Shown piece by piece: positions 2,191 to 48,159 of a DNA stretch of 64,000 bases. Each line of letters begins with the position of its first letter. The first letter of the stretch is position 1. The stretch spans positions 13,206,001 through 13,270,000 of the forward strand of contig NC_090419.1 in NCBI RefSeq assembly GCF_036365525.1. Reading direction: 5' to 3'. The DNA is from Heterodontus francisci. Lineage: Eukaryota. Below the pieces are notes generated by a model, which had not been told where the DNA came from, did not search any database, and was given only the letters and a program-made list of their open reading frames with translations. Position numbers and translations under genes: made by a program.

Positions 2191-2543
2191 ATGCTTTAAT
2201 TCACGTTTTTAATTCAGATTCAGTTCCCCATATCTATTTCTCTTGTAAAAACCATGATGGATTCTGCTTCCATCACTATTTCTGGTATAGCATTCGATGT
2301 CCGAACAACTTTTCATATACTGAATTACTAACGAGTGGAAATATTTTGTCCAAATTACTTTACAAACCCGTCAAAACTTTGAACAACCTCATCCGGATCT
2401 TCCTTCTCCTAATTGGGAATCACCAAATTCTCGATGAGTAATCCGTGTTAAATGCACAGATTTAGATGTGCACTGTGTTCCACTTAGTATAACAGCAGTC
2501 AGGTAGTGTGTTAAAGTGAGGAGGAGGGTAATAACCTACTCAC

Positions 2544-2625
2544 CGCTCGAACTGTCCACCACATCCAGAACAGAAGCAGCCGTGACAGCAACAGCCACAA
2601 GCACCCATCTGTAGAAAACTGACAT
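2544..2625 (-). CDS. Signal-peptide exon 1 of a divergently transcribed gene, probably MHC W-category beta chain (WB); the rest lies outside the window
   Basis: ATG at 2625 gives MSVFYRWVLVAVAVTAASVLDVVDSSS+G (82 nt, phase 1) followed by a GTGAGT donor. It has a hydrophobic leader and sits head-to-head 1.4 kb from the WA ATG. The WB identity is inferred from this arrangement only. Confidence 0.7.
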
Positions 2626-5702: not shown

Positions 5703-6230
5703 TACCCCATATTATTCCAAACTGGTTTTATGTAGAACTTGCTTTTCATGTAGCGATGTGATGTACAGTTTCTCAAAACTCCTTCTGTACGTTACTCCTG
5801 ACAGTTCCTCGGGACGGAAATGGTTTCAGTCGGTCACAGGTTTTGGATTTAAGGCTCCCTCCCAGACTTGAGTCCCCAGTACATGCTGAGAGTCTCGCAC
5901 ATTGAAGGGTTGCCGCACTGTCAGATCAAAGATTGAATCCAGGCCCTGTCTACTAGTTTAGCTGGATGTTAAAGATACCATGGCACTATTGGAAGTTTTC
6001 CTATTGTCCGAGCCAACATTCCCTCCTTCAGGCAACAAAAGCAATAAATGGGAACAATGGGTCATTCAGATCACCGTTCTTTTTGTGTTTATTGCCCTTT
6101 ACATTAATTATTTGCATGTGAAAACTTTAGCAATATTTTAGAGAAACATGATAAGATGCAATATAAGTATAAATGTCTAATTTCTCTCTCTCTCTCTCGC
6201 TCTGTTTTCTCCGCCATTTTCCCTGACTAG

Positions 6231-6500
6231 ATGTTGAAACTGTGACTGCAGAGTTGTACTACGGCCACACTCCAGACTCAGAAAGAACCGCGGGCATCTT
6301 CAGCCTAAATTCCATTCCCTTCATGTTCTACGACTACGGAATGCGGAAGTTTGTTTTAAATGGGAATGTGACAGACGGGATAGAGGAACTGGGCCAAGAA
6401 ATAGTGACTTATTTTACAGTGAGGACACGTGGCTTCCAGGAGCAACTGGGAATCATGAGCAAAGAGCTGATAAAGCAGACAGGCACAAGGAGGGTTGGCA
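6231..6500 (+). CDS. WA exon 2 (alpha1 membrane-distal domain)
   Basis: Polypyrimidine tract plus TAG acceptor, 270 nt, phase 1/1, GTAAGT donor. Encodes NVETVTAELYYGHTPDSERTAGIFSLNSIPFMFYDYGMRKFV...ELIKQTGTRRVG, a strand-then-helix pattern with typical MHC exon size. Confidence 0.85.
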
Positions 6501-7987
6501 GTAAGTTGCTCATTGACAGTTTTCAAAGCCACTCCCGGTGGCACCACTGAGCATGAACCTCATTAGTGCTGGCGTTCAGTGATGTGGGGGAGGTGAGACC
6601 CGGGCTCAGGTCCTGTGCTGTTCACAGCCCAAGCTGGGTGGGGGAGGCGGTGGGCAGAGCTCGCTACACCTTCCAGCAGGCTGCAACAGGAAAGGGGAAT
6701 AGAGCTGCCAGGTTTGTCGGTATTGAGAATGATTCGGAGACGGTCGAGCGGAACCTTGTGCCCACGCTGTCCAATCCAGGTGGTCAATTTTAACCCTAGC
6801 CATCCAGCAGAAACTGGGCGGGTAGGAAGCCAAAATGGGACTGGGTGACTTATCGGCTGATCCCACTGTCTTCGAATTTAACCTTCTCCTCTGAGCAGGT
6901 AGTAAAGGCACTCGCCTGAAGCTGGTGGGGTCTTTCAGTGTGCAGTTCGGAGCTCCAGTGAAGCCATTTCCGTAGTTAGTGGGTTCCGAGTGTGCTGTGC
7001 GCCATGTGCTCTCCTGATACAACTGAATGTCCGATGAACTAATTCCATTGTATAACTGAGGTGCTGGGTGGTAGTTTGTGGTGGTCTCACATCTAATTTA
7101 CAGCTCAGAAACAGGCCATTCGGCCCATCTGCTGTGTGCCGGTGTTTCTGCTCTACACAAGCCTCCTCCCACCCCTCGCTCCATCTCCCCGTATCACCAT
7201 AACCCTCTATTCCTCTCTGCATCATGTTTATCCTTAAATACATCGATACTATTCACCTCAACCGCTCCCTGTGGTAGCCAGTTCCACATTCTCACCGCTG
7301 TCCAGCAGTTTGTCCTGAATTCCTTCTTGAGATAATTCGCGACCTCCTTTCATTTATGACCCAAGCCCACCAAGTCTCCTAATGACTGTGTTGCTCGGAG
7401 CATTGACCTCTGGGTTCCTACCAGTTGCACGAGCAGCATTGTGCTCCATGAGGATTTAGCCTTTCCCAACTGGCCAAGCCCACGTCAGCCTTTGGTCTCA
7501 TTGTGTGGAATCGTCACGCTGTGACAGTCAGTGCGTACAGGACACTGGAAGCCCCATGTTGAGTCCAGTGCTCTTGGCGTGCTCTGTGTGAACAGACACA
7601 GGAGTTGAGCACGTCCTCTGACTCACCGGGAGCAACGCCACGGGAGATCGGCGAATTGCACTAACAGTCTTACACCAGGAGAGGGGAGGTGCCAGGGACG
7701 TGGGGTTTAGCATGGGGTACGAAACAAAACCTCGGCTACAGTATCATGGCAAACCTCTACTGTCACATTCTCTTGCCCAACCCTCTCACTTTGCACCTGC
7801 TCTCCCCAGTTTGAAAAGCCCATTGTAAATGCACTCCTCGAACCGTCCCTTTATTCACTGTCCTTACTGCTCTCCCACTTCCTCCTCAGGTCTCCTGGAT
7901 CCCTGTAAAACAAGGGAACATTGTGTTATGTGAAAGTGCTATCGAGGTACATGTCATTATTACAGTTAACTGTTATCTCTGTTACAG

Positions 7988-8269
7988 AAAAGCCAGCTGT
8001 GCACATCTACACTGAGGATAACTACACACCACATCAGTCAAACACCCTGTACTGTTACGCAGAAAAATTCTACCCGCACGAAATCGACATTACCTTCCAA
8101 ATCAATGGGAGGCGATTCACTGGGCTGGTTAATTCATCACAAACAGTGTTTGAGCAGGACTGGACATTTAACATCTTAAAGTACATCAGGATCGATCCAC
8201 ATGATGGGGGCACGTACAGCTGCCAAGTAGCTCATATGAGTCTCGAGAAACCACTGACTGTTTTGTTGG
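7988..8269 (+). CDS. WA exon 3 (alpha2, beta2m-like IgSF C1 domain)
   Basis: 282 nt, phase 1/1. Encodes KKPAVHIY...NTLYCYAEKFYPHEIDITFQING...TVFEQDWTFNILKY...YSCQVAHMSLEKP, with the C1 cysteine pair and a beta2m-type F-x-x-D-W-x-F motif. Confidence 0.92.
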
Positions 8270-8359
8270 GTATGTGACATACCGTAGGTTAGGTGTTAAG
8301 TTACTGTGGACGTCATTTAAAGGATTATAAGAATTCTGCAGAGGATCAGGTGTTTACAC

Positions 8360-8532
8360 CAGAGATTCCCGGGACCCCCTGTAAATACTGACACACTCAC
8401 AGGAATCCCCTTTAAATACTGACACTCCTGGGAAACCCTGCAAATACTGACACTCCTGGGACCCCCTTAAATACTGACACTCCTGGGACCCCCTTAAATA
8501 CTGACACACTTCTGGATGTCCTGTAAATACTG
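8360..8532 (-). repeat. Short array of the ~30-33-bp repeat (reverse orientation), left part
   Basis: Repeated ccctgtaaatactgacacactcc units, the reverse complement of the 33130-35585 array. Confidence 0.85.
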
Positions 8533-9614
8533 ATTACGAACAAGGCGGGAGCAATGCACTGTTAATTCAGTCCCACTTCTCCACGGGTCATGGCATATCA
8601 ATAGATTTTTCCCACCTACCGAAGAGTAGCCAATTAGACTCTATTTGTCCCCCAGAATAAAGCACACCAACCAGATTTCTTTACATAACAAGAACATTAA
8701 CTATTCATTAAAAAAAAGTCTTAACCACTAATGAGATAAATCTATATGGATGAAAGCTCCTTATTTCCCTAGTCCTCATGCACCCACATATACATTCAGA
8801 AAAACTGGTTAACCGGGAAAGGAAAAGGTTTTGGTTTACAGCTGTTTCATACGAATAAAAGGAATAATAAAATAATTCAGTTTGTCACGTACTGGTATGA
8901 AATTCTTCGATTGGGTGAGGTGTCCCAGAGTCGAATAGTCGGATGCCACTCAAAGTCTCTCCAGGCGAGGTTGGGGAACAGTCTGTGATCGATAGGCATT
9001 CGAGGCAATTTAACTATAGCAAGTGTCACATAGGTCTTTCAGCAGGGGTGTAGCAACAGGTCTGCTTAGGACTCACAGCAGCAGTATAGCAGTAGAAGCT
9101 TTCTTCAGGTTCCAGGATTTCCCAAAGCACAGGAGGCAACAGGAACCACATCTGGATTCGGGAATTCTTCAGAGACAGGAGACAATAGGAATCTGCCACC
9201 TTTCAAATACAGGGTTTCTTTTCAAGAATTGCACGTTTCCTTGACAGAGAGAGGTCTATTTCTGGGTCTTCCACTTTGATCCCCAGGCAGCTCAGAAACC
9301 GAATTTCAAATGCCTGCTCTTTGTCCAACTCACTAGCTGTTTAAAGGGACCAAAGTGGAAATAAACCTTCCTGAGCCAGTCAATTGACCAGACACAGAGT
9401 TTCCCTGTCATTCAAAGTGTTGTTCTGAGGAGTTCTAAATCCCTGGATGGTTTTCTTGAAACTACTTGCTCTCCTGTCTTGTATACAAAGTCAACATCCA
9501 AAAGTTTCAGCTGTTTGCAGGTGTCCATGTCCATTGAAAAATCCTTTTTTCATTTTTTTTTATAAAACACACAGAATTCTAAGATTTTAGTACAAATATA
9601 AAACCCTTGTAACA
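8533..9614. mobile_element. Solo-LTR-like element inserted in the 32-bp repeat within WA intron 3
   Basis: Ends in TGTAACA and begins with a degraded (TG)ATTACG. ACTG(A) is duplicated on both sides, and the element splits the repeat array. Confidence 0.55.
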
Positions 9615-9745
9615 ACTGACAATTCCAGGGATCCCCCGTAAATACTGACACTCCTGAGATCCCCTGTAAATGCTGACACACTTCCCGGGGACCCCCTGTA
9701 AATACGGACACACTCCCCGGAGACCCCCTGTAAATACTGATACCC
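9615..9745 (-). repeat. Short array of the ~32-bp repeat (reverse orientation), right part
   Basis: ccccgtaaatactgacactcc units resume after the insertion. Confidence 0.85.
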
Positions 9746-9961
9746 TCTTCACTCAAGACAGACTAAGTAATCACTGGTCCCATCCCTATGTACAAAATGG
9801 CAGCTACATGTACTGACATATTAACAGTCAGTGGACTTCAAATAATTCATTGCATGTGACGCACTCTCAGATCATTCTCAGGCATTGTACCAATGTAAAT
9901 CTTTCTAATTCTGACCATCAGTGAATACCTGATAATTTGCTGCCCTGATTGTATTGAACAG

Positions 9962-10073
9962 ATCAGCCTCCTGCACTGCCCGACGCTGGGACCATTGTCT
10001 GTGCTGTTGGAGTTATTGCAGGAGTTCTCGGCTTGGTGATAACTCTGTACCTGGTGACAAAAATATACAAGAG
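9962..10073 (+). CDS. WA exon 4 (connecting peptide and transmembrane segment)
   Basis: DQPPALPDAGTIVCAVGVIAGVLGLVITLYLVTKIYK carries the class II-alpha-type TM motif T-x-V-C-A-x-G-xxx-G-xx-G. Phase 1/2, GTGAGA donor. Confidence 0.9.
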
Positions 10074-10188
10074 GTGAGATACTTTTCTTTGTTGTGACTG
10101 ATCTGTTCTCTCGTTATCTGAAGGTTCTGGTTTTTTGTTGGAATTTATCAAGCTACGTCTTCAACCTGTTTCATACTTTTGTTTACAG

Positions 10189-10228
10189 ACGAGGAAAGCT
10201 TTGCTCTGAACAGCTCCGCAAACAATAA
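10189..10228 (+). CDS. WA exon 5 (cytoplasmic tail and stop)
   Basis: ttttgtttacAG acceptor, phase 2, RRGKLCSEQLRKQ*. The summed CDS is 768 nt = 255 aa plus stop. Confidence 0.8.
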
Positions 10229-11434
10229 TTTAGTGATCGAGGATGGAAAGGTCACTCGTAAAGGTCAGTCTCGTTAATTCACCAGAAAATTCTATTCATT
10301 TTAACCAAGGTGTTACTGTCAGTCAGACACTCTAGTCAAATAGGATCAGGTGTCTTGGCACACTGAACTTGCCCCTCAAGCAGTGTAAGATAGTGAGGTT
10401 ATTGTAGTTTGACTGAGATATATTCCAAGCAAAAATCACTCATGATTTGTGATGTAGATTAACATCATAAGCAAGGAGAGGAAAAGTTCAGATCCACAGC
10501 ACAACATTACCAAGACATCAACACAATTTATCAATTTCACTCAAAGAAGGTTGGTGTAGAAATTGGAATTATCACAATTTACAGTATTGTTGAGACAGCA
10601 ATAGGTAACTTTTACTCTGTATCTGTAAATCTGAGTTCTTTTTGCCTTCAGTCTGGTTCAGTAAATATACCGAGTCGGATGTGTCGGTAAAATCAATTAC
10701 TTTATTTGCGCAGTCGCCAGCGGACTTACTCTGAGAACAGCGGCACTGACTCCACCAGAGTCTGTCGGGTCCCCCCCCCAGAGTAAGTGAAGTTTGTGAT
10801 ACAGGTACTACATTAAGATTCATGCTACACCTCCTTGTTTAACCAATCAGTGCGGTACAATTCGACTTCACCCACGTGGTGACATGCAGTACATCTGTTA
10901 CTGAGGTTACAATACACTCCATTCTCAATACATACTTGCTACTAATAAAATATTGTTTTGTACCAGCAAGATAAAACAAAGCGGACAAGCAAGCTAATTA
11001 GCAAGAGCATAGGAATCATCAATAACCATGCTGGTCTCACTCCCTACATGGATCATGAGTTCTGCATCCTGCTCTCTCTATTAGGTTTACATTCCTGAGT
11101 GTTTCGTGCAGTCTGCAGCTACAAGTAGTGGCAGTTCATGAAGATAAGAGGGGCCTAGCACTCCTTATCACTCACACAGGGATGGACATCATTTGATTCA
11201 TATGAGTCCATCTGCTTCAAACCACAGGGAGTCATATACTCAGGCCATAAAGAACAGATGTCTTTGCAATTACCAGTGTCGGCTAGTCTTTACAGTCTCA
11301 CACTTTCTGCCTTTACTTTTAACTATTTCATTGTGGTTTCTGCCACTTAAAATCAAAGCTCAGCAAAGCTACTATTCCTAACTTGGCTATATTTCCCATT
11401 AAGCATAGTGCCATGCCTTTCTGCTCACTTCCAC

Positions 11435-14743: not shown

Positions 14744-15454
14744 TCTGTATTGACTGGAAAGGACAGGGGCAGGCCGATTAGCTGCCTTCTGTGCCGTAAA
14801 TTTGTCTACGTTCCTGTGACCCTGACCGCCTCGTCCGGGAAGGTGGAGGCGAAGGGCGGCTCCAAAGGTTAGTGCATGCCCCCGTCTTCAGTTTTCCGGT
14901 TGGAGTCCGAATTTTCAGCAGTGCGCTCCCTTCATACTGCGTGCGGTGTCAATCCATCTCCTAAAAGACAGAAGGAGGCTGAAGGCAGTACACGGTGCCC
15001 GTGCGCAAGCACGCTCTCACCGGAATCAAACTGCCGACCGGACGCCCCAGGTGATAGCCAATATGGCAGAGATTGGAGGATTAATTTGCGATTAATCTGC
15101 GAGAACATACAGAAGCTGTCTTTCTCGGACTGGAGGAGAGAGGGGCTCCAGCAGTCCAGTGAGGAGGGCCAGGTCTTGCCTAGTCTCTGTCCTGGATACG
15201 TGCAGAGAAATAGAGGGATGCTGCTCCCAAGGCAGGGTTGGGCTAATCTGAATACCATGCGCACATCCACTAAGATTGGTTCCCGGGATGGGGGTGGGGT
15301 TGGGGGGGGGGGAGCTTGACCCTGTGAAGAGAGACGGTGTAAATTGGGCCAGTATACTCTCCGGGGTGTCGAAGAATGAGAGGCGACCTCAGTGAAACAG
15401 ACACGATCCTGAAGAGGCTCGACAGGGCAGTAATGACAACCAACAACCCCCTAC

Positions 15455-15565
15455 CTTGATGCTTCTAGTAAACGATCCCTTCACCCAGCACACTGCGGAT
15501 TCCTACAATTCCGGACAGTATCCCGATAATGGCAGCAGGAGACAGCGAGCACTTTCTTTGGGGAC
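15455..15565 (-). pseudogene. Degenerate MHC beta-type (WB/class II beta-like) transmembrane exon
   Basis: 111 nt, phase 1/1: (V)SQRKCSLSPAAIIGILSGIVGIRSVLGEGIVY*KHQ+G with a GTAGGG donor. It has an in-frame stop, charged residues in the TM, and a broken acceptor (ttgca|TG) after a good polypyrimidine tract. Confidence 0.65.
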
Positions 15566-15664
15566 ATGCAAGACGGCAGAAAGAAAAAACAGAATTAAAA
15601 CAAAACAGGAAACTGTCATGCATTCAACCACAAGAAAACTCTACTATTTACACTTCCTACCTAG

Positions 15665-15869
15665 TGTTAGATACAGAGTAAAGCTCCCTCTACACTGTCC
15701 CCATCAAACACTCCCAGGACAGGTACAGCACGGGGGTTAGATACAGAGTAAAGCTCCCTCTACACTGTCCCCATCAAACACTCCCAGGACAGGTACAGCA
15801 CAGGGGTTAGATACAGAGTAAAGCTCCCTCTACACTGTCCCCATCAAACACTCCCAGGACAGGTACAGC
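15665..15869 (-). repeat. 70-bp tandem repeat, ~3 units, ending exactly at the Tx1 5' junction
   Basis: ttag recurs at 15667, 15737 and 15807 (period 70). The last unit stops at ...GGTACAGC. Confidence 0.95.
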
Positions 15870-16632
15870 GCTGGGATTGGCTGGGCAATTTGGAGCACTT
15901 CCTGCCAGCAATCAGGGGGAGCAGCTGCACCTGTGCTGCAGCAACTGCAGAGTGGAGTGTGGAGAGTGGAGAGTGGAGAGTGGAGAGTGCAGCAACTGGT
16001 GAGAGGAGAGTGGAATAACTGCAAAGAGGTGACTATAGAGTGGAGACAGCTGCATTTACTGAGGAACTGTTGCACTTTTTCAACGATTAAGAAGACCTGC
16101 AAGTCATTTTGGAGAGGTGGGTGTTGGAGCACCAGAGAACTGTTGGTTGTTTGGACTGTTGGGGGAGGGAGGAGGCACCGGAAGATCCAGGGGTGGGGCT
16201 GCCAAATTCTATAGGGAGCCCTTGTATTTGGTCTTGTGTTTATCTGCCATCCTGCACAGAAGGGGCTCCCTCCCCACCCCCAACTGTGTGGCTCGGGATG
16301 GCTGGAGCTGCCCGGCTGAAGACTATCTTAATACAACAACAGAAAAGGGAGAGAACCGGGCGGCTCTAGCCGACCCGGGCGAAGAGCCCTCCCCTAACTG
16401 GAAGATTGAATTGTAGACTCTGCAGGAAGGTGCTCCAACCACCAAGTGAACTGTAACATCCTCGCAGCTGTTCTCTCTCTTCCATCACTCGGCCACCTAT
16501 CCTCTCCTCTCCTTGTCCTTTTCAACCCTATCCTCCTCTACTCCCATCCCCACCTCCCCCATCATATTGTTTGTGTTTAAGAAAACTGTCGTGTGCTTTG
16601 TTTCTTGGGGGTGGGCGTAGCTCTGCGACCCC

Positions 16633-18674
16633 ATGGCAAGCCCCTCTTCGCCGGTGGCGGGGCCTTCCCGTTCATATGCTGCTGCGGCTGCTGCAGCTGC
16701 ACCTGTTGCCCCGTCACCGTTTGCTTTATTAACATCGAAGCATGGGGTCAAGAGCTACGTCCACCCGAACATGACTATCGAGGCATGCGTGAAAGCAATG
16801 GCCGAGGTTGTTGGCCCTTCGGCCATTGTTGCAGCCTCTAAAATGTATGGGAAGGCAGTGTTGTTCCTGAGGACCGAGCGGGCGGTGTCCCTGGCTCTGA
16901 GCAAGGGGCTCACCGTGGGCGGGACCTTTCTGCCAGTGGACCCCCTGGAGGCCACTGCGCAAAGGCTCATTCTATCCAATGTCCCGCCCTTCATTCCTGG
17001 TGAGCTCCTCCTTCCCCACCTGCACCATCTGGGGGAGGTAAAGACGGGGCTCACCCCAGTCCCGCTCGGTCTTCGGGAGAACAGCATCCGACACGTGTAC
17101 TCCTTCCGCCGCCAGTTATTCATGCAGCTGGCGCGGGAGGAGGTGACAGAGGGCCACTTTAATGTAGAATTCCAGGGGACGGCCTACCGCGTCTTCTGGA
17201 CCTTGGACGGGGTGCGGTGCCATGTCTGTAAGGGGGTGGGGGCATGTTCGTAAGAACTGCCCCAACCTCCCGGCTGCCAACTCCAACTCGGTGGCCCAGG
17301 GTGGCGACGCTGCATCTCCTCCCACCCCCCCCACACCTCCACCAGATACCATTCAGTCGGTACCGGAGGCTGTGGTTTTCACGGCCTCCGGCAGGGAGGG
17401 GGGTGACCGTCCAAGTGGAAGGAAGGCGCGGAGGAGAAATAAACATCGAGAGGCGCGTCCCCTGGACACCGTGACACTACCCGAGCCTGAGCTCAGCCCA
17501 AGGCCCGATCTCGGGAAGTCAACTTGCCCCAGGGCTGGGCTCAGGCCCAGGGTGAATAAAAAAAAGGAGAGTGTGGAGGTGGAGGCCTCTGATGATATGG
17601 AGGTCTCTGAGCCTCCACACACAACTGGGAAAAAGAGGAGAAGGCACCCCTCCACAGAGGTAACAAGGGGCCCTGAGGCTCAGGGCCCATCTGTTGGAGG
17701 GGAGCTGTCTCCTGTTTCGGGTCCCCAGGTTTCCCCTACCGCCACCACCAAGGCTGCAAAGTCCGGGCAGGAGCACTCTATTCCTCAGGATGGAGGGGAG
17801 GGGAAGGCCCCGGTACTTGAGGCCCCTCCTGAAGGAGTAAGTGGGGCCCTGCTTGTGGTGGGGAAGCCTGGGGACGCCGCCCATTCTACCACTGCTACTG
17901 GGTCGGGTGCCCTGAATGAAGGGGAGGGCGAGGCCCCAGAGGGTCGGCCCTCCCAGCCGGAGTCTACCACCAACCGAGAGACACCCGACCCGGTTATAAC
18001 CGAGAATGCTGCCCCATCTGCTGGGCCTGTGGGTGCTGCCGGAGCGGGAGATGGCCTCCTCTCTCCGCCTCCAGTCTCGGCTCCGGCTGGTTTTCCGGAG
18101 TCGGGAACTTCTGTCTCCCCTGGACCACTCATTGGCTTGGGGACGGAGGTGGAGGGGGGGTCCTGAACCGCTGGTGCCTACAGGCTCCAGTTTCACAATA
18201 GAACCCAGAGAGGACTCCTCCGCCATCGATCCTGGGGGTGGGATCGTGACGGAGGCGGGACCAGCTGGCGCGGCCGGGACGTCCGCCCCACAGTGTGTGG
18301 TAGATGCGTCGGCCGCTGGCGGTGACGACCCGGAGGAGGATGGGGATTCGGTGCGGGGCACGGAGGATGATCTTGATTCCATCACCAGTGAGGTGGTGGA
18401 GTCCCTCGTGCCTCCCACCGAATCTCCTCTCATCCCCACGGCGGAACTCCGGGATTTCCTCGCGGCTTGCAGAGGTTGCCGCAATAAAGTTCAGCTGGCC
18501 CTCGACCGTTGGTCGAATCTGGCGCTGATCATACAGTCCGTCCGTGCCGCCCTTCAGATAGCGGGCAAGCGCGCGGACGTGAAACTGGTTGAGAGGCGCC
18601 GTTTTAATGTGTTCCTCAATGGGTTGCTGGGGGAATGGAGGGCCAGGTGCACTTCCACTCCCTCCTCACAGTGA
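16633..18674 (+). CDS. Tx1 ORF1 (gag-like nucleic-acid-binding protein), split by two +1 frameshifts in G runs
   Basis: ORFs 16633-17253, 17222-18166 and 18006-18674 lie in successive frames. Removing one G near 17240 restores the CX2CX4HX4C knuckle CHVCKGVGHVRKNC. Confidence 0.8.
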
Positions 18675-18706
18675 GGTGTTTGTGACGGGTTTTAATTACC
18701 TTTGAC

Positions 18707-21700
18707 ATGAAGATAACCATAGCCAGCCTCAACATCAACGGCAGCAGAGGGGCTCACCGCAGATTTCACAATCTCTCAGTCCTTAGGGAAGGGAGATACG
18801 CGATGAGCTTTCTGCAGGAAACCCACACCGTTCCGGGAGACGAAGCCACCTGGCTCCTGGAGTGGCAGGGTGGGGTCTACATGAGTCACCTCACCCCTAT
18901 TTCCAGTGGGGTGGCTATCTTGTTGGCCCCGACTTTTCAGCCGGAGATCTTGGGGGTCAAGGGGCTAGTGCCGGGCCGCTTGCTCCACCTCACCGTTCGC
19001 CTGGGTAGCGTGCCGCTCCACTTTGTGAACGTGTACGCGCCCAGGCCCGGCGCGTTGCAAGCGCGCTTCTTTGAAGAAGTGTCCGCTCTCTTGAGCTCCA
19101 TCGATAGCGGCGAGTGCATCATCCTCGGGGGGGATTTTAACTGCACCCTCGAGGTGGGGGATCGCTCCGGTCCCCAGCGCGGCCAAGCGTCGGTGGAGAA
19201 GTTGAGGGGACTGATCAGCTCCCTTAACTTGGTGGACGTCTGGCGGAATCTCCATCCCGACTCCAGCGCCTTCACGTGGAGGTCTGGAGGAGGGGGGTCG
19301 CGAATCGACCGCCTCTACATTTCGCAGGCGTACGTCTCCCGCGTTTCGGCGGCCTCCATGCGGCTGGTGCCGTGCTCGGACCACCGCCTGGTGTGGGCGG
19401 AGTTCACTCCGCTCCGCACGCGGGCGGGGTCCGCGTACTGGCACTTTAACAACCGGCTGCTGGAGGACGTGCGATTTCGGGACTCGTTCTGTCGATTCTG
19501 GGCCGACTGGAGAAGGAAACAGGGGGGCTTCCCCTCCTTGAGGCTATGGTGGGATGTGGGCAAGACTCACATCCGCGTCTTCTGTCAGGAGTACGCGAGG
19601 GGGTCGACCAAGAGGCGGGAAGCCGAGATCGGGCGCCTTGAGAGGGAGGTGCTCGACTTGGAATCCCGCCTCGGTCATGCCGTCGCGGACCCGGTCCTGT
19701 GGCAGGCGTACAAAGAGAAGAAGGGCGCGCTGAGGAACCTGCAGCTCATAGGGTCCCGAGGCGCGTACGTGAGGTCGCGGATCCAGATCCTGGAAGATTT
19801 GGACCGTGCCTCACCCTTCTTCTACTCGCTGGAAAAATGGCGGGGGGTCCGTAAGCAGCTCGTTGAGCTGCTGGCCGACGACGGATCCTCCATCACGGAT
19901 CCGGAGGGAATGGGCCTCCTGGTCCGGACGTATTACAGTGCGTTGTTCTCTCCGGATCCGTCCAGCGAGGATGCGCGCAGAGTTTTGTGGGAGGACCTGC
20001 CGCAGGTCAGCCCGGAGGGCGCCGAAGGATTGGAGGCTCCGCTCACGTTGGCGGAGCTGACTGGCGCCCTCCACCAGCTCTCGAGGGGCAAATCCCCAGG
20101 GCTGGATGGGTTGACCGTGGAGTTCCTCAGGGCGTTCTGGGACGTCCTGGGGGACGATTACGCGCGGGTCCTGGGGGAAAGCCTAGCGACCGGGGAGATG
20201 CCCCTCTCGTGGCGCAGGGCGGTCATCGTCCTGCTGCCGAAGAGGGGCGATCTCCGCCTGCTTAAAAACTGGCGTCCGGTCTCCCTCCTCAGCACGGATT
20301 ATAAGATCTTTGCCCGGGCTATGTCTACCCGCCTGGGCTCCATGCTGGCCCACATGATCCACCCCGACCAGTCCTACACGGTCCCGGGCCGGTCCATCCA
20401 GGACAACATCCACCTGGTCCGGGACCTGATCCATCTTTCCCAGAGGACTGGTCAGTCGGTCGCCTTTCTCTCCCTCGATCAGGAGAAGGCGTTCGACAGG
20501 GTGGATCACGATTACCTTTTCGGGACTCTGCGCGCTTTCGGACTCGGGCCGCATTTCGTGGCCCGGGTCCGACTTTTAGACGCCGCCGCAGAGTGTCTAG
20601 TCAAAGTTAACGGGTCCTTGACGGCGCCCCTTCGCTTTGGGAGAGGAGTGCGTCAGGGGTGCCCCATGTCCGGCCAATTGTATACCATCTGCGTGGAGCC
20701 CTTCCTGTGCCTGCTTCGCAGGAGGTTGACGGGGTTGGCTCTGCGCGAGCCGGCCATGCGGGTCGTCCTCTCGGCTTACGCCGACGACGTGCTCCTCGCA
20801 ATCACAGATCCCGTTGACTTGCGGAGGATGCGCGACTGCCAGCAGACCTTTTCTGCCGCGTCCTCCGCGAGGATCAATTGGGAGAAATGTTCCGGACTCC
20901 TGGTTGGTCAGTGGCGGGTGGACTCCCTGCCGGAGGAGATGACACCTTTTGCGTGGAGCACCACGCACCTCCTCTATCTGGGAGTCCACCTTAGCCCCGC
21001 TGAGGAAGCCTGGCCGGCAAACTGGCAGGAGTTGGAGGCGAAAGTCACCGCTCGGCTGGGGCGCTGGACAGGACTGCTCCGAGTGCTTTCCTACAGGGGC
21101 CGAGCATTGGTCATAAACCAACTGGTGGCCTCCATGCTGTGGTACCGGTTGGTCACTTTGGCCCCGCCCCCTGTATTTGCCACCAAGATCCAGAAGAAAC
21201 TCGTCGATTTCTTCTGGGGCAAGAGGAAACACTGGGTCTCTGCCGCGGTCCTGAGTCTCCCGATCGAGGAGGGCGGTCAGTCGCTGGTGTGCGTCCGCAC
21301 CCAGGCTGCGACTCTCCGCCTTCGGACCCTGCAGAGATACCTGTACGTCGAGCGTCCTCCCAGATGGTGTGCGCTGGCGACGTATTTTTTCCGCCAGTGT
21401 CACTGCCTTCAAGACGACACGCAGCTCCCGGTGGAGTCCGTTAGCCGCGCCTCTCTGAGGGAGTTGCCTGTCTTTTACCGGGATCTTTTCCGAGTCTGGA
21501 ACATGGTCGCCTCCAGTCAGGGCGCTCCCCCGCCGGCGGAGGAGAGCGCCTCGGCTGTCCGGGCGGCCGACTCCGGGGACGGTCCGGCGGGCGGAGGAGT
21601 AGCCGGAACCCCCGGGACGCCCCTCACTGCGGGTGGCGAGGGGGCTCGGGAGTGCGGAGCGATCCCGGCCGAGCTGACCCCCGCTCGGCCGGAACTGCTC

Positions 21701-22486
21701 ATCGGACCCAGGCCCCGAAACCCTCCTCGGGAGCCGGTCCCGCACAACCCGAGCCGCCTCTCGGAAATGCCCTCCGTGCCATTCCAATCGGCGCGGAGGG
21801 GTTTCCTGTACTGGCTGCTCCTGCACACTCTCCACTTCCTCGCCCTCGTCAGCCGGCCGGACACGCCCTGGCGGTCCGCGTTGCCATCTGGCGGCGAGGG
21901 GAAACCCCGATGGAGGTCTCTCTACGCGGGAGTCTTCCCCCTTTACATCGGGGAACTGGGGTGGAGGGTGCTGCACAGAGCAGTCCCGTGCAATAGGCTT
22001 TTAAGTAGGTTCACGGACTCCCAGGCCAGCTGTACTTTCTGCGGCCTGGACGAGTCCGTGTTCCACATTTATATGGAGTGTGCGAGGTTGCAGCCCCTAT
22101 TTGAGTATCTGAAGGGGCTGCTCCTCAAATTCTGGCTGCACTTCAGTCCCACGCTCCTGATCTTTGGGCACCCGGTGCGGAGGGGCTTGGGCCGGGAGGA
22201 GGATCTCCTCGTCGGTCTGCTCCTGGGCCTGGCCAAGGTGGCAATTCACAGGTCCAGTTTGCGGGCCGTCGGGGGGTCCGTCCTCCCCGATTGCCTGCCC
22301 CTCTTCCGCGGTTACGTTCGCGCCCGGGTGTCCCTGGAAAGGGAGCATGCGGTGTCCGCCGGTACGCTTGAGGCCTTCCGCGACTGGTGGGCACCGCAGG
22401 GACTGGAGTGCATTGTCGACGCCGAGAATGGCATTTTTAATTTGAGTTTTTTGTTTATTTATCTGGTTTTAATAAAGTTATTTTAA
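18707..22486 (+). CDS. Tx1 ORF2: AP endonuclease, reverse transcriptase and C-terminal Zn finger (1259 aa)
   Basis: APE motifs SLNING, LQETH, GGDFN, SRIDR, SDH; RT motifs KSPGLDG, WRPVSLL, DQEKAFD, GVRQGCP, YADD; Zn finger CTFC...ESVFHIYMEC. Confidence 0.95.
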   Translation: MKITIASLNINGSRGAHRRFHNLSVLREGRYAMSFLQETHTVPGDEATWLLEWQGGVYMSHLTPISSGVAILLAPTFQPEILGVKGLVPGRLLHLTVRLGSVPLHFVNVYAPRPGALQARFFEEVSALLSSIDSGECIILGGDFNCTLEVGDRSGPQRGQASVEKLRGLISSLNLVDVWRNLHPDSSAFTWRSGGGGSRIDRLYISQAYVSRVSAASMRLVPCSDHRLVWAEFTPLRTRAGSAYWHFNNRLLEDVRFRDSFCRFWADWRRKQGGFPSLRLWWDVGKTHIRVFCQEYARGSTKRREAEIGRLEREVLDLESRLGHAVADPVLWQAYKEKKGALRNLQLIGSRGAYVRSRIQILEDLDRASPFFYSLEKWRGVRKQLVELLADDGSSITDPEGMGLLVRTYYSALFSPDPSSEDARRVLWEDLPQVSPEGAEGLEAPLTLAELTGALHQLSRGKSPGLDGLTVEFLRAFWDVLGDDYARVLGESLATGEMPLSWRRAVIVLLPKRGDLRLLKNWRPVSLLSTDYKIFARAMSTRLGSMLAHMIHPDQSYTVPGRSIQDNIHLVRDLIHLSQRTGQSVAFLSLDQEKAFDRVDHDYLFGTLRAFGLGPHFVARVRLLDAAAECLVKVNGSLTAPLRFGRGVRQGCPMSGQLYTICVEPFLCLLRRRLTGLALREPAMRVVLSAYADDVLLAITDPVDLRRMRDCQQTFSAASSARINWEKCSGLLVGQWRVDSLPEEMTPFAWSTTHLLYLGVHLSPAEEAWPANWQELEAKVTARLGRWTGLLRVLSYRGRALVINQLVASMLWYRLVTLAPPPVFATKIQKKLVDFFWGKRKHWVSAAVLSLPIEEGGQSLVCVRTQAATLRLRTLQRYLYVERPPRWCALATYFFRQCHCLQDDTQLPVESVSRASLRELPVFYRDLFRVWNMVASSQGAPPPAEESASAVRAADSGDGPAGGGVAGTPGTPLTAGGEGARECGAIPAELTPARPELLIGPRPRNPPREPVPHNPSRLSEMPSVPFQSARRGFLYWLLLHTLHFLALVSRPDTPWRSALPSGGEGKPRWRSLYAGVFPLYIGELGWRVLHRAVPCNRLLSRFTDSQASCTFCGLDESVFHIYMECARLQPLFEYLKGLLLKFWLHFSPTLLIFGHPVRRGLGREEDLLVGLLLGLAKVAIHRSSLRAVGGSVLPDCLPLFRGYVRARVSLEREHAVSAGTLEAFRDWWAPQGLECIVDAENGIFNLSFLFIYLVLIKLF

Positions 22487-22769
22487 AAATATAAGTGTGT
22501 ATATAAAGGGGGCCTGAGGAATAAAGGCCCCCTCGACATAAAAAAAATATATAAAAGGGGCCTGGGGTATAAAGGTCACCTTAAAAAAGAAAAAAAAAAA
22601 TGGGTTTTCTGGCCATCTTTTGGAAAAAAGCCAGAACCCCAAATCTGACTGAAGTTGGGAAACGGCTGTTTCTGATGTCAGCAGCTGTCAGTTGGGAGAG
22701 TGACTTGCGATCTTGTAAAAAAAAGATTGACCAACCATCTACTGAGCATTCCCGCTCACTGCAATCATC

Positions 22770-23200
22770 AGAGAGAGAGAGGGGACAGGGAGAGTAAAAG
22801 GGGGGAGCAGGGAGCGAGATAGAGGGGGGGACAGAGAGAGAGAAAGGGGGAGAGGAGGAGACAGGGAGAGATAGAGGGGGGACAGAGAGAGAGATAGAGA
22901 GAAAGGGGGAGAGGAGATGGGAGAGAGGGGGAAAGAGGAGGGGGATCAGGGAGAGAGGGGGAACAAGGAGAGAGAGAAAGTGAAGGTGGACAGAGAGAGA
23001 GAAAGGGGAGAGGGAGGGAGACAGAGAGAGAGGGGGCGCAGGGAGGGAGAAAGGGGGAGGGGGATAGAGAGAGAGAAAGGGGAGAGAGAGGGGGGCAGAG
23101 GGAGTGAGGATGACACGGGGGGAGGAACAACTCAGAGAGGTGAGATCACGGGGTGGGTGGGGGGGGTCACAGAGAGGGGATAACAGGGAAAGAGAGTGAT
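22770..23200. repeat. GA-rich low-complexity tract
   Basis: Degenerate (GA)n/GGGA repeats. Confidence 0.9.
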
Positions 23201-23660
23201 CAAGATCAGTCCTGGCAAATGGACATCTATCCAGAACACTCCACATTGCTACAGGTGTGCGGGTGGACACTGACTACTTGTGCAAGCGAAAAAAAATGCC
23301 AGGTGTCTCACTAAATCAGTGTTCAACATAGTGATGAGAAAGTAAGTCACTAAATTTGTCTTCTCATTTAAAGCTTCTTCACAAAAATGCACATTTGTTT
23401 GTGCTTTGATTACGAGTAAGATAACTTTTTAACGTCTTTGTCTTTCTAAAATTGTCTCACTGCCCCACCCCCCATGTAAGACAAAAATTATAATGTGCGC
23501 CCCGCCCCCGTCCCACACGAAAAGTTTGGACAACCCTGCTCTACACATTCCCATCCATAGAGGAGAAGTCAGATTATAAACTACTGTATAACTCACTCTT
23601 TTTCACAAGGGACATCCGACCTATTGTTAAACGTACACGTCGAGGGTCTTCAGTACATAC

Positions 23661-23925
23661 CCCAGTCCATAAGAAGCCCCTGCGAGAGGGAGGCGTGCTC
23701 CACCGAGCAATTTGGGTCAGTGTTGATGAAGGCAGCTTTCAGAAAGGTCTCATCGCTGTTTGGGAGGACCTGGGTCTGTATCCCTTCGTGTCGGAGGCTC
23801 CCACCATTTCTTAGCCAGGTCATGTTGAGGGCTCCTGGACAGTAGCTGGCAGCTGTACACTGGAACTGGCTGGAATGGCCACAGGCCCCCAGATCATGGA
23901 AGGAGACGGTCACTGCCAGGAGACA
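23661..23925 (-). pseudogene. Degenerate MHC C1-domain exon (WB beta2 / class I alpha3-like)
   Basis: ttctcAG acceptor and GTATGT donor (phase 1). Encodes ...QCTAASYCPGALNMTWLRNG...QVLPNSDETF...DPNCSVEHASL...MDW. Its 265 nt fit a 282-nt exon with a +1 frameshift near the start and an 18-nt loss before the second Cys. Confidence 0.8.
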
Positions 23926-24429
23926 CTGAGAATAGACGGTTACTTTTAATTCTGCGCTCCTCCCCCGCCCCCCCCCCCCCACCCCACCCCACCAACCTAC
24001 ACTTTCCCCAAGGAAAGCCCCAACTCTCACTGGGATACAGCCTCCATGGGCACCGACTGGTACCACACCTGAACTGGGAACGTAGGAACCTCAGGAGGCC
24101 ATTCAGCCCCTCCAACCTGTTCCGCCATCCAACAAGATCATGACTGATTAGTATAGATTGGCTTTATGGTCGGCATGGACGCGTTGGGCCGAAGGGCCTG
24201 TTTCTATGCTGTACGACTCTATGACTGATCTGCGGCCTAACCCATATCCCCGCCTTTGCCCTCATATCCTATACCTTTGCCTAACAAAAATCAATTAATC
24301 TTACAGATTTAATATTAACAATTGATTCCAGCATCGATCGCCGTTTTCGGGAGAGAGTTCCAAACTACTACCGCCCTTTGTGTGCGGAAGTGTTTCCTAA
24401 TTTCATTCAGGTCCATTCAGGCTAAATTG

Positions 24430-24615: not shown

Positions 24616-25537
24616 CCTCTCAGAGGGTCGTGAGTCTTTGGAACTCTCTCTTCCTCAAAAGGTGGCGGAAGCAGAGTCTATGAATATTTTGAAGGCAGAG
24701 GTAGATAGATTCTTGATGAGCAAGGGGGTGAAAGGTTATCGGGGCGAGGCGGGAACGTGGAGCTGAGGTTGCAATCAGATCAGCCGTGATCTTGTTGAGC
24801 GGCGGAGCGGGCTCGAGGGGCCGAGTGACCTCCTCCTGCTCCTAATTCGCATGCTCGTGTGAATACACCGCTGAACCTCATCAGATTTGAGGTGGAGTGG
24901 GCTTCTGGGCCTACGTGGCTGTCCTCAGCATTGTGGGTGGGTTTTCCTCGTCGCGGGTCAGCTCTGCCAACAACTCAACGGGGGGGGGGGGGGGGCGAAG
25001 CAAGGAGGAGGCGGGCAGTTCCTGACTGGCGCAATTTGAATTTAATTAATGAATAAAAACGTGGAATTGAGAGCCAGTCTCAGTAATGGTGCCCTGAAAC
25101 ATCATCGATTGTCGTAAAATAAAACATTCACTAATGCCCTTTAGGGGAGGTAATCCGCCGCCCGTGCCCGGTCTGGCCTACATGTGACTCCAGGCAACCC
25201 CCCCCCCCCACCCCACCTCCCCCCACAGCAACGTGATTGACTCTTAAATGCGATCGGTAATGGCCTCGCGAGCCACTCAGTTGTCACGGGCAACCGCCAC
25301 CTTACCTTTTTGCTTAAAAAAAAAACAATCGCTCGTTCACGGGATGTGGGCAAACGTGCCCACGAACAGAACTGAGCTCGTCTCGTAAAATGCCCTCGCA
25401 AATCCCACCAATGGCACTTCAGCAGCGGCGTCACGGCCCCCCCCCCCCCCCCCCCCACCCCCGGAAGGTTCTGCGAGAAAAAGACTTTTGAAATCTTTTC
25501 ACCTGTTGTAACCGGTGCTCCTCAAGCAGAGTTTCAC

Positions 25538-29401: not shown

Positions 29402-29469
29402 TTTTAGCTTCAAGTCGAACGAAGTCGAGGACAACCCCGTCTATGGGAACATCAACTACATTTACACCG
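29402..29469 (+). CDS. SIT1: SIT1-like exon with the YGNI motif
   Basis: SFSFKSNEVEDNPVYGNINYIYT, compared with human SIT1 EEVPLYGNLHYLQT (recalled). Phase 2/1, GTGAGC donor. Confidence 0.88.
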
Positions 29470-29779
29470 GTGAGCAGCTCCTTAACTGCCTGCGCGGAAC
29501 AAATTGTTCACCACGTGTGGGGGTCTGTCAGATAACCAAGTGACAGCGGGCGCTCCCTTCTCGGCCCTTCTGAATGCTCCCAGGTGACAGTCACGGCAGC
29601 TGCCGCGCAGCTCTCTGACTCAAAGCGCTGCAGCTCCTTGAACACGGACTGACAGCATCACAAATTCAGTTGAGGGAGATTTACACTGCCCTGGGTTTCC
29701 GTGGGCAAAGTGGGTTTCCGTGGGCAAAGGCACATCAGGGTTGTTCATATCAAACTGTGTGTCAGCCACAAAATGAGCA

Positions 29780-31767: not shown

Positions 31768-32662
31768 TTTTTTTTTATATAAGGTGGCCTTTATACCTCA
31801 GGCCCCTTTTATATATTTTATGTCGAGGGGGCCTTTATTCCTCAGGCCCCCTTTATACACATATTTTTAAAATAACTTTATTAAAAACAGATAAATAAAC
31901 CTAAAACTCAAATTAAAATGCCATTCTCGGCGTCGACGATGCACTCCAGTCCCCGCGGTCACGGAAGGCCTCAGGCGTACCGGCGGACACCGCATGCTCC
32001 TTCTCCAGGGACACCCGAGCGCGAACGTAACCGCGGAAGAGGGGCAGGCAATCAGGGAGGACGGACCCCCCACCCCCCCACTGACGGCCCGCAGCCTGGA
32101 CCTGTGAATTGCCACCTTGGCCAGGCCCAGGAGCAGACCGACGAGGAGATCCTCCTCCCGGCCCACGCCCCTCCGCACCGGGTGCCCAAAGATCAGGAGC
32201 GTGGGGCTGAAGTGCAGCCAGAATTTGAGGAGCAGCCCCTTCAAATACTCAAACAGGAGCTGCAATCTCGCACACTCCGTACAAATGTGGAACACGGACT
32301 CGTCCAGGCCGCAGAAAGTACAGGCGGCCGGGGAGTCCGTGAACCTACTTAAAAGTCTATTGCACGGGACTGCCCTGTGCAGCACCCTCCACCCCAGGTC
32401 CCCGATGTAAAGGGGGAGGACACCCGCGTAGAGAGAGACCTCCATCGGGGTTTCCCCTCGCCGCCAGATGGCAACGCGGACCGCCAGGGCGTGTCCGGCC
32501 GGCTGACGAGGGCGAGGAAGCGGGGAGTGTGCAGGAGCAGCCCGTACAGGAAACCCCTTGCGTGCCGGAGGGCTTTTCCGAGAGGCGCCTCGGGTTGTGC
32601 GGGACCGGCTCCCGAAGAGGGTTGCGGGGGCTTGGGTCCGATGAGCAGTTCTGGCCGAGCGG
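31768..32662 (-). mobile_element. 5'-truncated Tx1 copy
   Basis: Near-identical to 21680-22600 (IGDLGWRVLHRAVPCNRLLSRF...), with the same 3' UTR and poly(A). Confidence 0.92.
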
Positions 32663-33047
32663 TTGTCATTCATGCATTAATCTTTCTGAAAGTTGCTCAC
32701 CAGCACCCTCTGTAGGACCAAATTTGTAATGTGGCCCCTCACTGAAAATGTTGGACGCCCCTCGTGCAGAATGAGCTTTACTCTGTATCGAATCTAATCT
32801 GGTTGCCCAACCTGAAACCCGACAACATGGGTTTGGGTCGGGTCAGGACTGTACCGTTTCGTTTCGTACTGTTTTTGTTTTAATCTACGATTTTTTTCCT
32901 GTTGCATTAATATGTTCGTTATTTTTGGGTCGAGTTGGGCATTTAAAAAAATTAAAGGACACGAGAATGGGTAGGTTCTTGTCGGGTCGCGTTTTAATTT
33001 TATACCCAAGCCAGGCTTTAATCGAAACTCTGTTTTTTTTTTACCAT

Positions 33048-33126
33048 ATGCTGTACCTGCCCTGGGCGTGTTTGATGGAGACAGTGTAGAGGGAGCTTTA
33101 CTCTGTATCTAACCCCCATGCTGTAC
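33048..33126 (+). repeat. Single 70-bp repeat unit abutting the 32-bp array
   Basis: gctgtacctgccctgggcgtgtttgatggagacagtgtagagggagctttactctgtatctaacccccatgctgtac. Confidence 0.85.
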
Positions 33127-33129
33127 GCG

Positions 33130-35585
33130 TATTCACAGGGCGTCCCTGGGGAGTCTGTCAGTATTTACAGGGGTCCCCGGGGAGTGTGTCAGTATTTACA
33201 GGGGTCCCCGGGGAGTGTGTCAGTATTTACAGTGGATCCCCGGGGGAGTGTGTCAGTATTTACAGGGGATCCCCGGGGGAGTGTGTCAGTATTTACAGGG
33301 GGTCCCCGGGGGAGTGTGTCAGTATTTACAGGGGTCCCCGGGGGAGTGTGTCAGTATTTACAGGGGTCCCCGGGGAGTGTGTCAGTATTTACAGTGGATC
33401 CCCGGGGGAGTGTGTCAGTATTTACAGGGGGTCCCCGGGGGAGTGTGTCAGTATTTACAGGGGGTCCCCGGGGAGTGCGTCAGTATTTACAGGGGGTCCC
33501 CGGGGAGTGCGTCAGTATTTACAGGGGTCCCCGGGGGAGTGTGTCAGTATTTACAGGGGGTCCCCGGGGGAGTGTGTCAGTATTTACAGGGGGTCCCCGG
33601 GGGAGTGTGTCAGTATTTACAGGGGGTCCCCGGGGAGTGTGTCAGTATTTACAGTGGATCCCCGGGGGAGTGTGTCAGTATTTACAGGGGGTCCCCGGGG
33701 GAGTGTGTCAGTATTTACAGGGGGTCCCCGGGGAGTGTGTCAGTATTTACAGGGGGTCCCCGGGGGAGTGTGTCAGTATTTACAGGGGGTCCCCGGGGGA
33801 GTGTGTCAGTATTTACAGGGGTCCCCAGGGGACTGTGTCAGTATTTACAGGGGGACCCCGGGGGAGTGTGTCAGTATTCACAGGGGGTCCCCGGGGGAGT
33901 GTGTCAGTATTTACAGGGGGTCCCCGGGGGAGTGTGTCAGTATTCACAGGGGGTCCCCGGGGGAGTGTGTCAGTATTTACAGGGGTCCCCAGGGGACTGT
34001 GTCAGTATTTACAGGGGGACCCCGGGGGAGTGTGTCAGTATTCACAGGGGGTCCCCGGGGGAGTGTGTCAGTATTTACAGGGGGTCCCCGGGGGAGTGTG
34101 TCAGTATTCACAGGGGGTCCCCGGGGGAGTGTGTCAGTATTTACAGGGGTCCCCAGGGGACTGTGTCAGTATTTACAGGGGGACCCCGGGGGAGTGTGTC
34201 AGTATTTACAGGGGGTCCCCGGGGGAGTGTGTCAGTATTTACAGGGAATCCCCGGGAAGTGTGTCAGTATTTACAGGGGTCCCTAGGGGACTGTGTCAGT
34301 ATTTACAGGGGGACCCCGGGGGAGTGTGTCAGTATTCACAGGGGGTCCCCGGGGGAGTGTGTCAGTATTTACAGGGGGGGGGGGGGCCCGGGAAGTGTGT
34401 CAGTATTTACAGGGAATCCCCGGGGAGTGTGTCAGTATTTACAGGGCGGTTCCCGGGGGAGTGTGTCAGTATTTACAGGGAATCCCCGGGAAGTGTGTCA
34501 GTATTTACAGGGGGACCCCAGGGGACTGTGTCAGTATTTACAGGGGGACCCCGGGGGAGTGTGTCAGTATTCACAGGGGGTCCCCGGGGGAGTGTGTCAG
34601 TATTTACAGGGGGGGGGGGGGGGCCCGGGGAGTGTGTCAGTATTTACAGGGAATCCCCGGGGAGTGTGTCAGTATTTACAGGGCGGTTCCCGGGGGAGTG
34701 TGTCAGTATTTACAGGGAATTCCCGGGGAATGTGTCAGTATTTACAGGGGGGTTCCTGGGGGAGTGTGTCAGTATTTACAGGGAATCCCCGGGGAGTGTG
34801 TCAGTATTTACAGGGGTCCCCGGGGAGTGTGTCAGTATTTACAGGGGTCCCCGGGGGAGTGTGTCAGTATTTACAGTGGGGGAGCCCGGGGAGTGTGTCA
34901 GTATTTACAGGGGGGTTCCTGGGGGAGTGTGTCAGTATTTACAGGGAATCCCCGGGGAGTGTGTCAGTATTTACAGGGGTCCCCGGGGAGTGTGTCAGTA
35001 TTTACAGGGGATCCCCAGGGGAGTGTGTCAGTATTTACAGGGAATCCCCGGGGGAGTGTGTCAGTATTTACAGGGGATCCCCGGGGGAGTGTGTCAGTAT
35101 TTACAGGGGATCCCCGGGGGAGTGTGTCAGTATTTACAGGGGATCCCCGGGGAGTGTGTCAGTATTTACAGGGGGTCCCCAGGGGAGTGTGTCAGTATGT
35201 ACAGGGGGTCCCCAGGGGAGTGTGTCAGTATTTACAGGGGGTCCCCGGGTAGCGTGTCAGTATTTACAGGGGACCCCGGGGGAGTGTGTCAGTATTTACA
35301 GGGGGACCCCGGGGGAGTGTGTCAGTATTTCCAGGGAATCCCCGGAGAGTGTGTCAGTATTTACAGGGGGTCCCCAGGGGAGTGTGTCAGTATTTAGAGG
35401 GGGTCCCCGGGGAGTGTGTCAGTATTTACAGGGGGGTTCCCGGGGGAGTGTGTCAGTATTTACAGGGAATCCCCGGGGAGTGTGTCAGTATTTACAGGGG
35501 GGTTCCTGGGGGAGTGTGTCAGTATTTACAGGGGGGTTCCCGGGGGAGTATGTCAGTATTTACAGGGAATCCCCGGGGGAGTGTC
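33130..35585 (+). repeat. ~31-33-bp minisatellite in the last SIT1 intron
   Basis: Unit gggagtgtgtcagtatttacagggggtccccgg with variable G-run lengths. Confidence 0.97.
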
Positions 35586-35614
35586 TGGATTTCTCACGCT
35601 CTCTGTCTCCGCAG

Positions 35615-35932: not shown

Positions 35933-36357
35933 TGAGACCTTCGGCGATGCTGCATCGGGGGACAGCATTAGTTGCTTTACCCTGAAACTCTCAATCCCGA
36001 GGACCTCTCCCTCTCTCCATTTTCGAATCAATATTTCTGAACTGATGGACTAATGACACAATTCCAATGACCCACAGCCCTGCAGGCTGGCGGGTTCCCC
36101 AACCGTGAATCTGGATGCTTGGGAACAATTGCAGAACGGACCTGGACCACAGTTTTTTGGATAACTGTTCCGCACGCCGGGTCCCTCAGCAGCTCATTCA
36201 GGGATAAATCTGGACGCAGATGGTCGTCGATGACAGGAGATCGATCCCGTTGGCGATTGAGATACACTCTTTCATTCTGTCTCTCCCTTTCTCATTCCCA
36301 AGGCCAAATTCTCATCTCCCTTAGCTTTTAAGCGTCTCTTTCTGCAGACAAGATTCA

Positions 36358-48155: not shown

Positions 48156-48159
48156 AGAA

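Follow-up and report, generated by a model that had tools for sequence, protein, structure and literature searches.

Three exon relics in a bullhead shark W-category gene cluster: a probable WB DS3 unitary pseudogene with likely ongoing transcription

W-category molecules are a proposed link between class II and class I of the major histocompatibility complex (MHC), and their function is open. In a 64,000-nucleotide stretch of Heterodontus francisci DNA (contig NC_090419.1, positions 13,206,001 to 13,270,000; hereafter the window), a sequence-only reading had pointed to two minus-strand exon relics of a second, decayed beta-type MHC gene, expected to be a WB. The locus raises the question of which gene left these relics, what became of its other half, and whether anything is still made from it. 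The analysis showed that the relics, now three in number, very probably represent the broken 3' half of a WB DS3 gene, likely a unitary pseudogene and likely still transcribed, from which no MHC chain can be encoded.

Exon relics and their parent gene

The three relics occupy the following positions in the window:
23661..23925, minus strand: WB DS3 beta2 (immunoglobulin C1-set) exon relic, covered end to end by contig X5#8 with 0 differences
15455..15565, minus strand: WB DS3 connecting-peptide/transmembrane (TM) exon relic, identical to five DS3 proteins at 14-20 of 37 positions
14932..14960, minus strand: terminal cytoplasmic exon relic, reading GDGLTPHAV-stop against GDGLTKHTV-stop in DS3

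The C1 and TM relics (23925-23661 and 15565-15455) were found on the same strand, in the expected order and in phase 1, as had been claimed from the sequence alone. The terminal exon (14960-14932) and the spliced contigs described below, which came from RNA-like runs, are additions to that reading. Both splice sites of the C1 exon were kept (acceptor TATTCTCAG, donor G/GTATGT). Its length of 265 nt equals the 282 nt of the 94 codons in DS3 orthologues, less 18 nt and plus one: one base was added near 23915, shifting the frame after three codons, and 18 nt (six codons) were lost near 23711, directly before the second cysteine, relative to all five DS3 orthologues. The main frame was open across 84 codons that include both cysteines, and its translation contained the predicted VLPNSDETF and CSVEHASL, with SYCP where GFYP was expected. 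The relic scored 28.1 bits for Pfam C1-set (cut-off 21), and its DNA had a single match in the whole genome, which here and below means one assembly. The TM relic had the predicted length of 111 nt and kept its donor (G/GTAGGG); CAT stood at the ancestral acceptor position, and an in-frame TAG was found at 15467-15465. Thus all four lesions listed in the sequence-only reading, the frameshift, the 18-nt deletion, the lost TM acceptor and the TM stop, are real. The glycines of the TM relic (G-ILS-G-IV-G...G), which are of the class II beta type, aligned to DS3 TMs without gaps, and the relic scored 73.0 against the DS3 TM profile, compared with a maximum of 33.2 among 50 shuffles. A good acceptor, with a pyrimidine tract and AG, preceded the terminal exon relic, whose score was not matched in 200 shuffles of a 1.45-kb stretch and was the highest for the GDGLT..V motif across a 264-kb region. 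A middle cytoplasmic exon candidate picked by eye near 15050-15100 scored at background and was dropped.

To name the parent, the relics were aligned to neighbouring and other shark WB genes, class I and class II beta. A protein search over 1.84 billion representatives, with 66 matches scored at E <= 0.001, returned a catshark DS3 protein as the only match above 50% over the whole C1 query (51%, 84/84 residues); the top-ranked row was a multi-domain repeat with 32% identity. The catshark protein led to four relatives in Triakis, Carcharodon, Heptranchias and Pristiophorus, and the record WB_DS3_01 sits in the Triakis cluster. Intact orthologues, which the sequence-only reading had suggested looking for, are thus represented by DS3 proteins in five species, and in white shark, sevengill and catshark they share contigs with WA genes. 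A homologue search with the relic alone gave 13 candidates, of which 0 scored. In the C1 domain, the relic was 48-55% identical (42-48/88) to the five DS3 proteins, compared with 37% (32/87) to WB DS1L of the same genome, 29% (24/84) to the WB Nds5L left of the window, 29-36% to seven class I domains and 30% to two class II beta domains. TM identities to WB Nds5L and WB DS1 of the same genome were 10/37 and 11/37, respectively. In the reverse direction, white shark DS3 placed the relic first among 103 genome matches (E 8e-20), so that relic and DS3 were reciprocal best matches, and the C1, TM and terminal exons each scored best with DS3. The relic also kept the DS3-specific strings SFHDL, HSSQ, SLSPAAI and the terminal GDGLT..V.

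The diagnostics of a WB chain that were tested were P57, which makes a class I-type contact to the alpha2/beta2-microglobulin domain, the lack of W61 (mostly G61), and the TM glycines. P57 was present, since VLP57NSDE of the relic lined up with ILP57 in WB rows of Dataset S2 (PMC8713811). Position 61 was E, where the DS3 orthologues have N, K, R, G and G and class II beta of the same genome has W. A decayed W-category beta gene, as predicted, is supported by these residues together with the DS3 identities. In a 19-row tree of C1 and TM, the relic was nested in DS3 (86/86) as sister to four galeomorph sequences, a position that suits a bullhead shark. The C1-only tree recovered the galeomorph grouping (87/81) and left the wider DS3 group open. 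Judged by these sequence comparisons, the C1, TM and terminal exon relics are parts of one parent gene, WB DS3.

The missing 5' half and the spliced RNA

A WB chain, expected to form a surface heterodimer with WA, is encoded by leader, beta1, beta2, TM and tail, of which only the beta2, TM and terminal exons remain at this locus. The class I-type residues A32, G35 and D37 of WB chains belong to beta1, an exon not found here. A frameshift-tolerant DS3 profile detected three paralogous WB beta1 exons in the 264-kb region and none belonging to the relic. Between 23926 and 27600, beta1 and leader scores were at background (reached by 74 and 58 of 100 shuffles), in agreement with the earlier statement that no such relic was recognisable, and short motifs of beta1 and of Nds3L, the WA partner of DS3, gave chance-like matches only across the region (~245 kb readable). 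No WA exon right of the relic rose above background, so that head-to-head WA pairing was not seen here. Among the W alpha genes of the genome, two WA probes, both paralogues, picked up nothing beyond DS5L (twice) and DS10L, in agreement with the WA profile and motifs, and an Nds3L protein search gave 20 matches, none recognisable as Nds3L. An intact DS3 elsewhere in the genome was not found with the queries used. The relic is therefore a disabled gene at the orthologous site with no functional copy detected in the one assembly, by a set of searches in which the one for beta1 had no positive control. The expected place of its beta1, leader and WA partner is occupied by a SIT1-like gene, which starts 2.6 kb from the relic C1 exon. 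In the intact pairs, 9, 12 and 17 kb separate the C1 exons, and deletion of the 5' half with the partner would therefore be the simplest reading.

Transcription of the remaining exons was examined in sequencing runs. The relic C1 exon was found in 8 of 14 runs listed, none on record as RNA; four DNA runs flagged as possible source of the window were left out of the counting, and the near-absence of matching words in runs X9 and X14 is uninformative. In all four of the guessed-RNA runs that were mapped (two samples, two studies), cover near the C1 exon was confined to the exon, with the proviso that uncovered intron bins are not evidence by themselves. Contig X5#8 (2521 nt) matched 23661-23928 with 0 differences, and its loose ends were placed uniquely at 25506-25535 and 15526-15555. 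Upstream, a donor at 25503 (CAG/GTGAAA) was joined to the C1 acceptor; downstream, the C1 donor was joined to a cryptic AG at 15555 within the TM relic. Both joins were GT-AG on the minus strand, and the upstream one defines a further feature:
25503..25535, minus strand: 3' end (33 nt) of an upstream exon unrelated to MHC, where a loose end of X5#8 maps

The DNA around this exon was single-copy and had no beta1 similarity; a resemblance to beta1 noted by eye scored at background and was dropped. Because the C1 exon and the upstream DNA each have a single copy in the assembly, an intronless copy is unlikely to be the source of the contig. Contigs of two further runs also had 0 differences to the C1 exon, frameshift included, and a contig of a second organism, B (X8#32, 206 nt, 5 differences, 0 gaps, depth 5.3), bridged the 18-nt deletion site. 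The deletion therefore predates the split of organisms A and B. Spliced RNA from the relic locus is likely. In the joined form, the main C1 frame is closed by a stop codon 21 codons further upstream, on condition that the new exon exceeds 63 nt, and no Met precedes the first cysteine. Translation of the TM exon would be out of frame and end after 17 codons. An MHC chain cannot be made from the observed splice form, and the RNA would be non-coding or degraded.

A retrotransposon also lies within the relic:
15871..22620 (ends approximate), plus strand, antisense to the relic: retrotransposon of the LINE (long interspersed nuclear element) type with Pfam RVT_1 and Exo_endo_phos

It occupies most of the 8.1-kb intron between the C1 and TM exons. 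Its ORF2 (open reading frame 2) is uninterrupted for 1259 aa (18707-22483), and its ORF1 region is broken across frames. These features suggest a course of events in which one deletion would have removed the leader, beta1, the head-to-head WA Nds3L and their shared promoter. Loss of the 5' region and partner would have freed the remaining exons from selection, and the point lesions and the LINE insertion would have come afterwards as these exons decayed neutrally. The surviving splice signals may then have captured the new upstream exon, whose transcription, divergent or antisense, likely originates at a presumed promoter of the SIT1-like gene.

Alternative readings

Several observations count against a transcribed DS3 pseudogene. 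In the approximately unbiased (AU) test on the C1+TM tree, groupings of the relic with Nds5L (p-AU 0.23) or DS1 (0.12) were left standing and the DS3 branch was unstarred, so that the assignment rests mainly on the identities and shared motifs. No middle cytoplasmic exon of DS3 rose above background (184 of 200 shuffles reached the score). The genome-wide DS3 beta1 query gave 0 candidates in a search that had no positive control, and the absence of Nds3L rests on paralogue probes and short motifs, as no WA Nds3L sequence served as a probe. The runs were guessed as RNA with no DNA-run control, and the contigs carry no information on strand or level. The two junctions came from one contig of one run, whose sample is possibly the genome's own source; 2.1 kb of X5#8 past the upstream junction is unmapped, and the organism B contig stops short of the frameshift site.

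The parentage and the integrity of the gene can be read in other ways. The sequence-only reading had called this a second gene beside the intact WB left of the window, and a decayed duplicate of that Nds5L, or of DS1, would fit a cluster that does duplicate (its inverted DS5L/Nds5L pairs are ~96% identical over 3.4 kb of WB); DS1 is, in addition, the top non-self match of the relic in the genome, and the AU test spared both groupings. Such a copy should not be closer to the DS3 of other sharks (48-55%) than to its supposed sources (29% and 37%), nor keep the four DS3-specific strings, and this origin is very unlikely; the relic belongs to the separate subgroup DS3. Other origins, whether from a class I heavy chain, class II beta or a C1 gene outside the MHC, or from a separate parent for each of two relics, might be suggested by VLPNxDxTF, which is common to class I alpha3, and by the many lower matches to class I or II. 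The AU test rejected the relic with class I (p-AU 0.002) and with class II beta (0.007), all three relics matched DS3 best, and the MHC proper sits on a different contig; class II beta is further opposed by E61 and P57, against its invariant W61 and lack of a conserved P57. Any such parentage is hardly credible. Assembly errors or a null allele, with an intact DS3 present in the species, are conceivable to the extent that absence from the one assembly searched is not absence from the species. The frameshift recurred in the contigs of the two further runs, organism B shared the deletion, and the zebra bullhead shark rows seen in the datasets of PMC8713811 were DS5L, DS10L, DS1L and Nds5L, with no DS3 or Nds3L among them, so that this explanation is extremely improbable.

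The spliced RNA might also have been retained because it serves a new purpose, either regulating the SIT1-like gene as an antisense or divergent transcript or encoding a short, soluble piece of C1. In favour are the intact TM donor and pair of C1 splice sites, the capture of a new exon, exon-only contigs from two organisms and two studies, and the open 84-codon frame with both cysteines. A protein product is opposed by the lack of an upstream in-frame Met or signal peptide, the out-of-frame TM, the deleted strand before the second cysteine and the change of GFYP to SYCP. Depth was 3-5 in three of the four runs, the value of 182 in X5 is a whole-contig mean that may reflect a merged neighbour, and leaky splicing of pseudogenes is generally known to be common. 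A retained role is unlikely. Its fuller form, in which the exons left over after the loss of DS3 and Nds3L were taken up by a spliced RNA transcribed from the SIT1 side, with a regulatory role or a soluble, membrane-free C1 fragment as product, is a shade less likely still; if true, such a fragment would echo the proposed origin of beta2-microglobulin, a W chain minus its membrane anchor.

The W cluster and its published counterparts

The W genes around the relic received their names from a by-eye comparison of their translations against Datasets S1-S3 (Okamura et al. 2021, PMC8713811). In the 120 kb left of the window, the order was WA DS5L (-), WB Nds5L (+), WA DS10L (-), WB DS1L (+) and WB Nds5L (-), followed by WA DS5L (+) inside the window and then the relic. 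The cluster thus holds three intact-looking WA/WB pairs, whose three WB genes lie within ~80 kb to the left. The suggestion that the locus once held more than one WB is in line with this count and is not new, as multi-pair W clusters were already described in white shark (PMC8713811) and in catshark and sawfish (Supplementary Fig. 3 of PMC10751288, Verissimo et al. 2023). The W genes of the cluster differed very little from the zebra bullhead shark rows in the datasets of PMC8713811 and from proteins labelled Heterodontus. The neighbouring features in the window are:
2541..2620, minus strand: leader exon of an intact-looking WB Nds5L, whose gene body lies left of the window
6227..10228, plus strand: WA DS5-like alpha1, C1, TM and tail exons, matching DS5L rows in Datasets S2 and S3 of PMC8713811
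26527..35932, plus strand: SIT1-like transmembrane adaptor gene, exons read from sequence
45627-50360, minus strand: TSR2 gene, Pfam WGG over cut-off, a published W-cluster neighbour

The WA DS5-like gene is the partner of the left-hand WB and stands tail-to-tail with the relic. The adaptor gene, which we take to be SIT1, carries the motifs NPVYGNI, ICYAKL, QYTEI, LYASV and EYANK, and Pfam SIT gave no match in the genome or in single exons. Its exons at 29407-29471 and 35615 have phases that cannot be joined directly, and one exon may be unseen. The name fits Supplementary Fig. 3 of PMC10751288. The MHC proper lies on the separate contig C29 at ~32-67 Mb, where numerous class I alpha3 exons, a pair each of class II alpha and class II beta genes, and beta2-microglobulin lie near each other. 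An FtsJ search gave four genome matches, none on the contig of the relic, and was uninformative for synteny.

An inverted DS5L/Nds5L duplicate was also observed (window -7336..10326, ~13198700-13216300, against ~13133400-13156900 on the same contig). The two pairs were near-identical in C1, TM and tail (WB 95.6% over 3.4 kb; WA C1 97% aa) but differed strongly elsewhere, with 61% aa identity in alpha1 and 67% nt identity over the beta1 region. This pattern resembles gene conversion that homogenised the membrane-proximal parts and left the groove domains distinct. The idea that this second pair compensates for the DS3 loss was rejected because sevengill and cloudy catshark likewise have two DS5L genes. 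Basking and white shark database models fuse WA DS10L to WA DS5L, and these fusions probably stem from annotation or from read-through between tandem WA genes. The LINE family has three copies in the window, at 15871-22620 (+), 31768-32668 (-) and 38821-40765 (-). Two of them adjoin arrays of one 70-bp repeat at a near-identical point of the unit, which may reflect a target-site preference. Long tandem arrays of short units at ~33100-37400 and 53300-64000 were a source of spurious long open reading frames.

In elasmobranchs, multicopy WA/WB clusters lie outside the MHC beside TSR2, with SIT1 as a neighbour in sawfish (PMC10751288), and one white shark W-cluster pseudogene is marked in Supplementary Fig. 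3 of that paper. In the literature found, no account of the relic or of a DS3 loss was seen, and the SI Appendix of PMC8713811 may bear on the point. The family, the subgroup and multi-pair clusters were already published, as were gene birth and death in W clusters. The relic is an ordinary unitary pseudogene that is useful to annotators and makes a modest comparative point, with no new MHC lineage or mechanism. It indicates that bullhead sharks can do without one of the three ancient W pairs of sharks, a pair that five other shark species have kept intact. The other two W subgroups persist in bullhead sharks, which offers a natural gene-loss lineage for comparing them.

Like transcribed unitary pseudogenes in general, the relic is the sole broken orthologue at the ancestral site and is likely still spliced, and no feature was found that sets it apart from them. 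Its cluster resembles the elasmobranch W-type clusters of PMC10751288 in its multicopy WA/WB genes and its TSR2 and SIT1-like neighbours; Heterodontus is not named in the main text of that paper, and no lineage loss of DS3/Nds3L was seen in it. The WB DS1L and WB Nds5L of its own cluster, within 80 kb, share P57, the lack of W61 and the Gly-rich TM with the relic but belong to other subgroups, and their exons are open, each gene with a head-to-head WA partner. Compared with WB DS3 and DS3-like genes (banded houndshark WB_DS3 and white shark WB DS3L in PMC8713811), the relic is alike in exon sizes, phases and terminal motif. As in other sharks, it sits in a W cluster beside TSR2, but with no detected leader, beta1, middle tail exon or WA Nds3L partner, and with four lesions, an intron LINE and a non-MHC upstream exon of its own.

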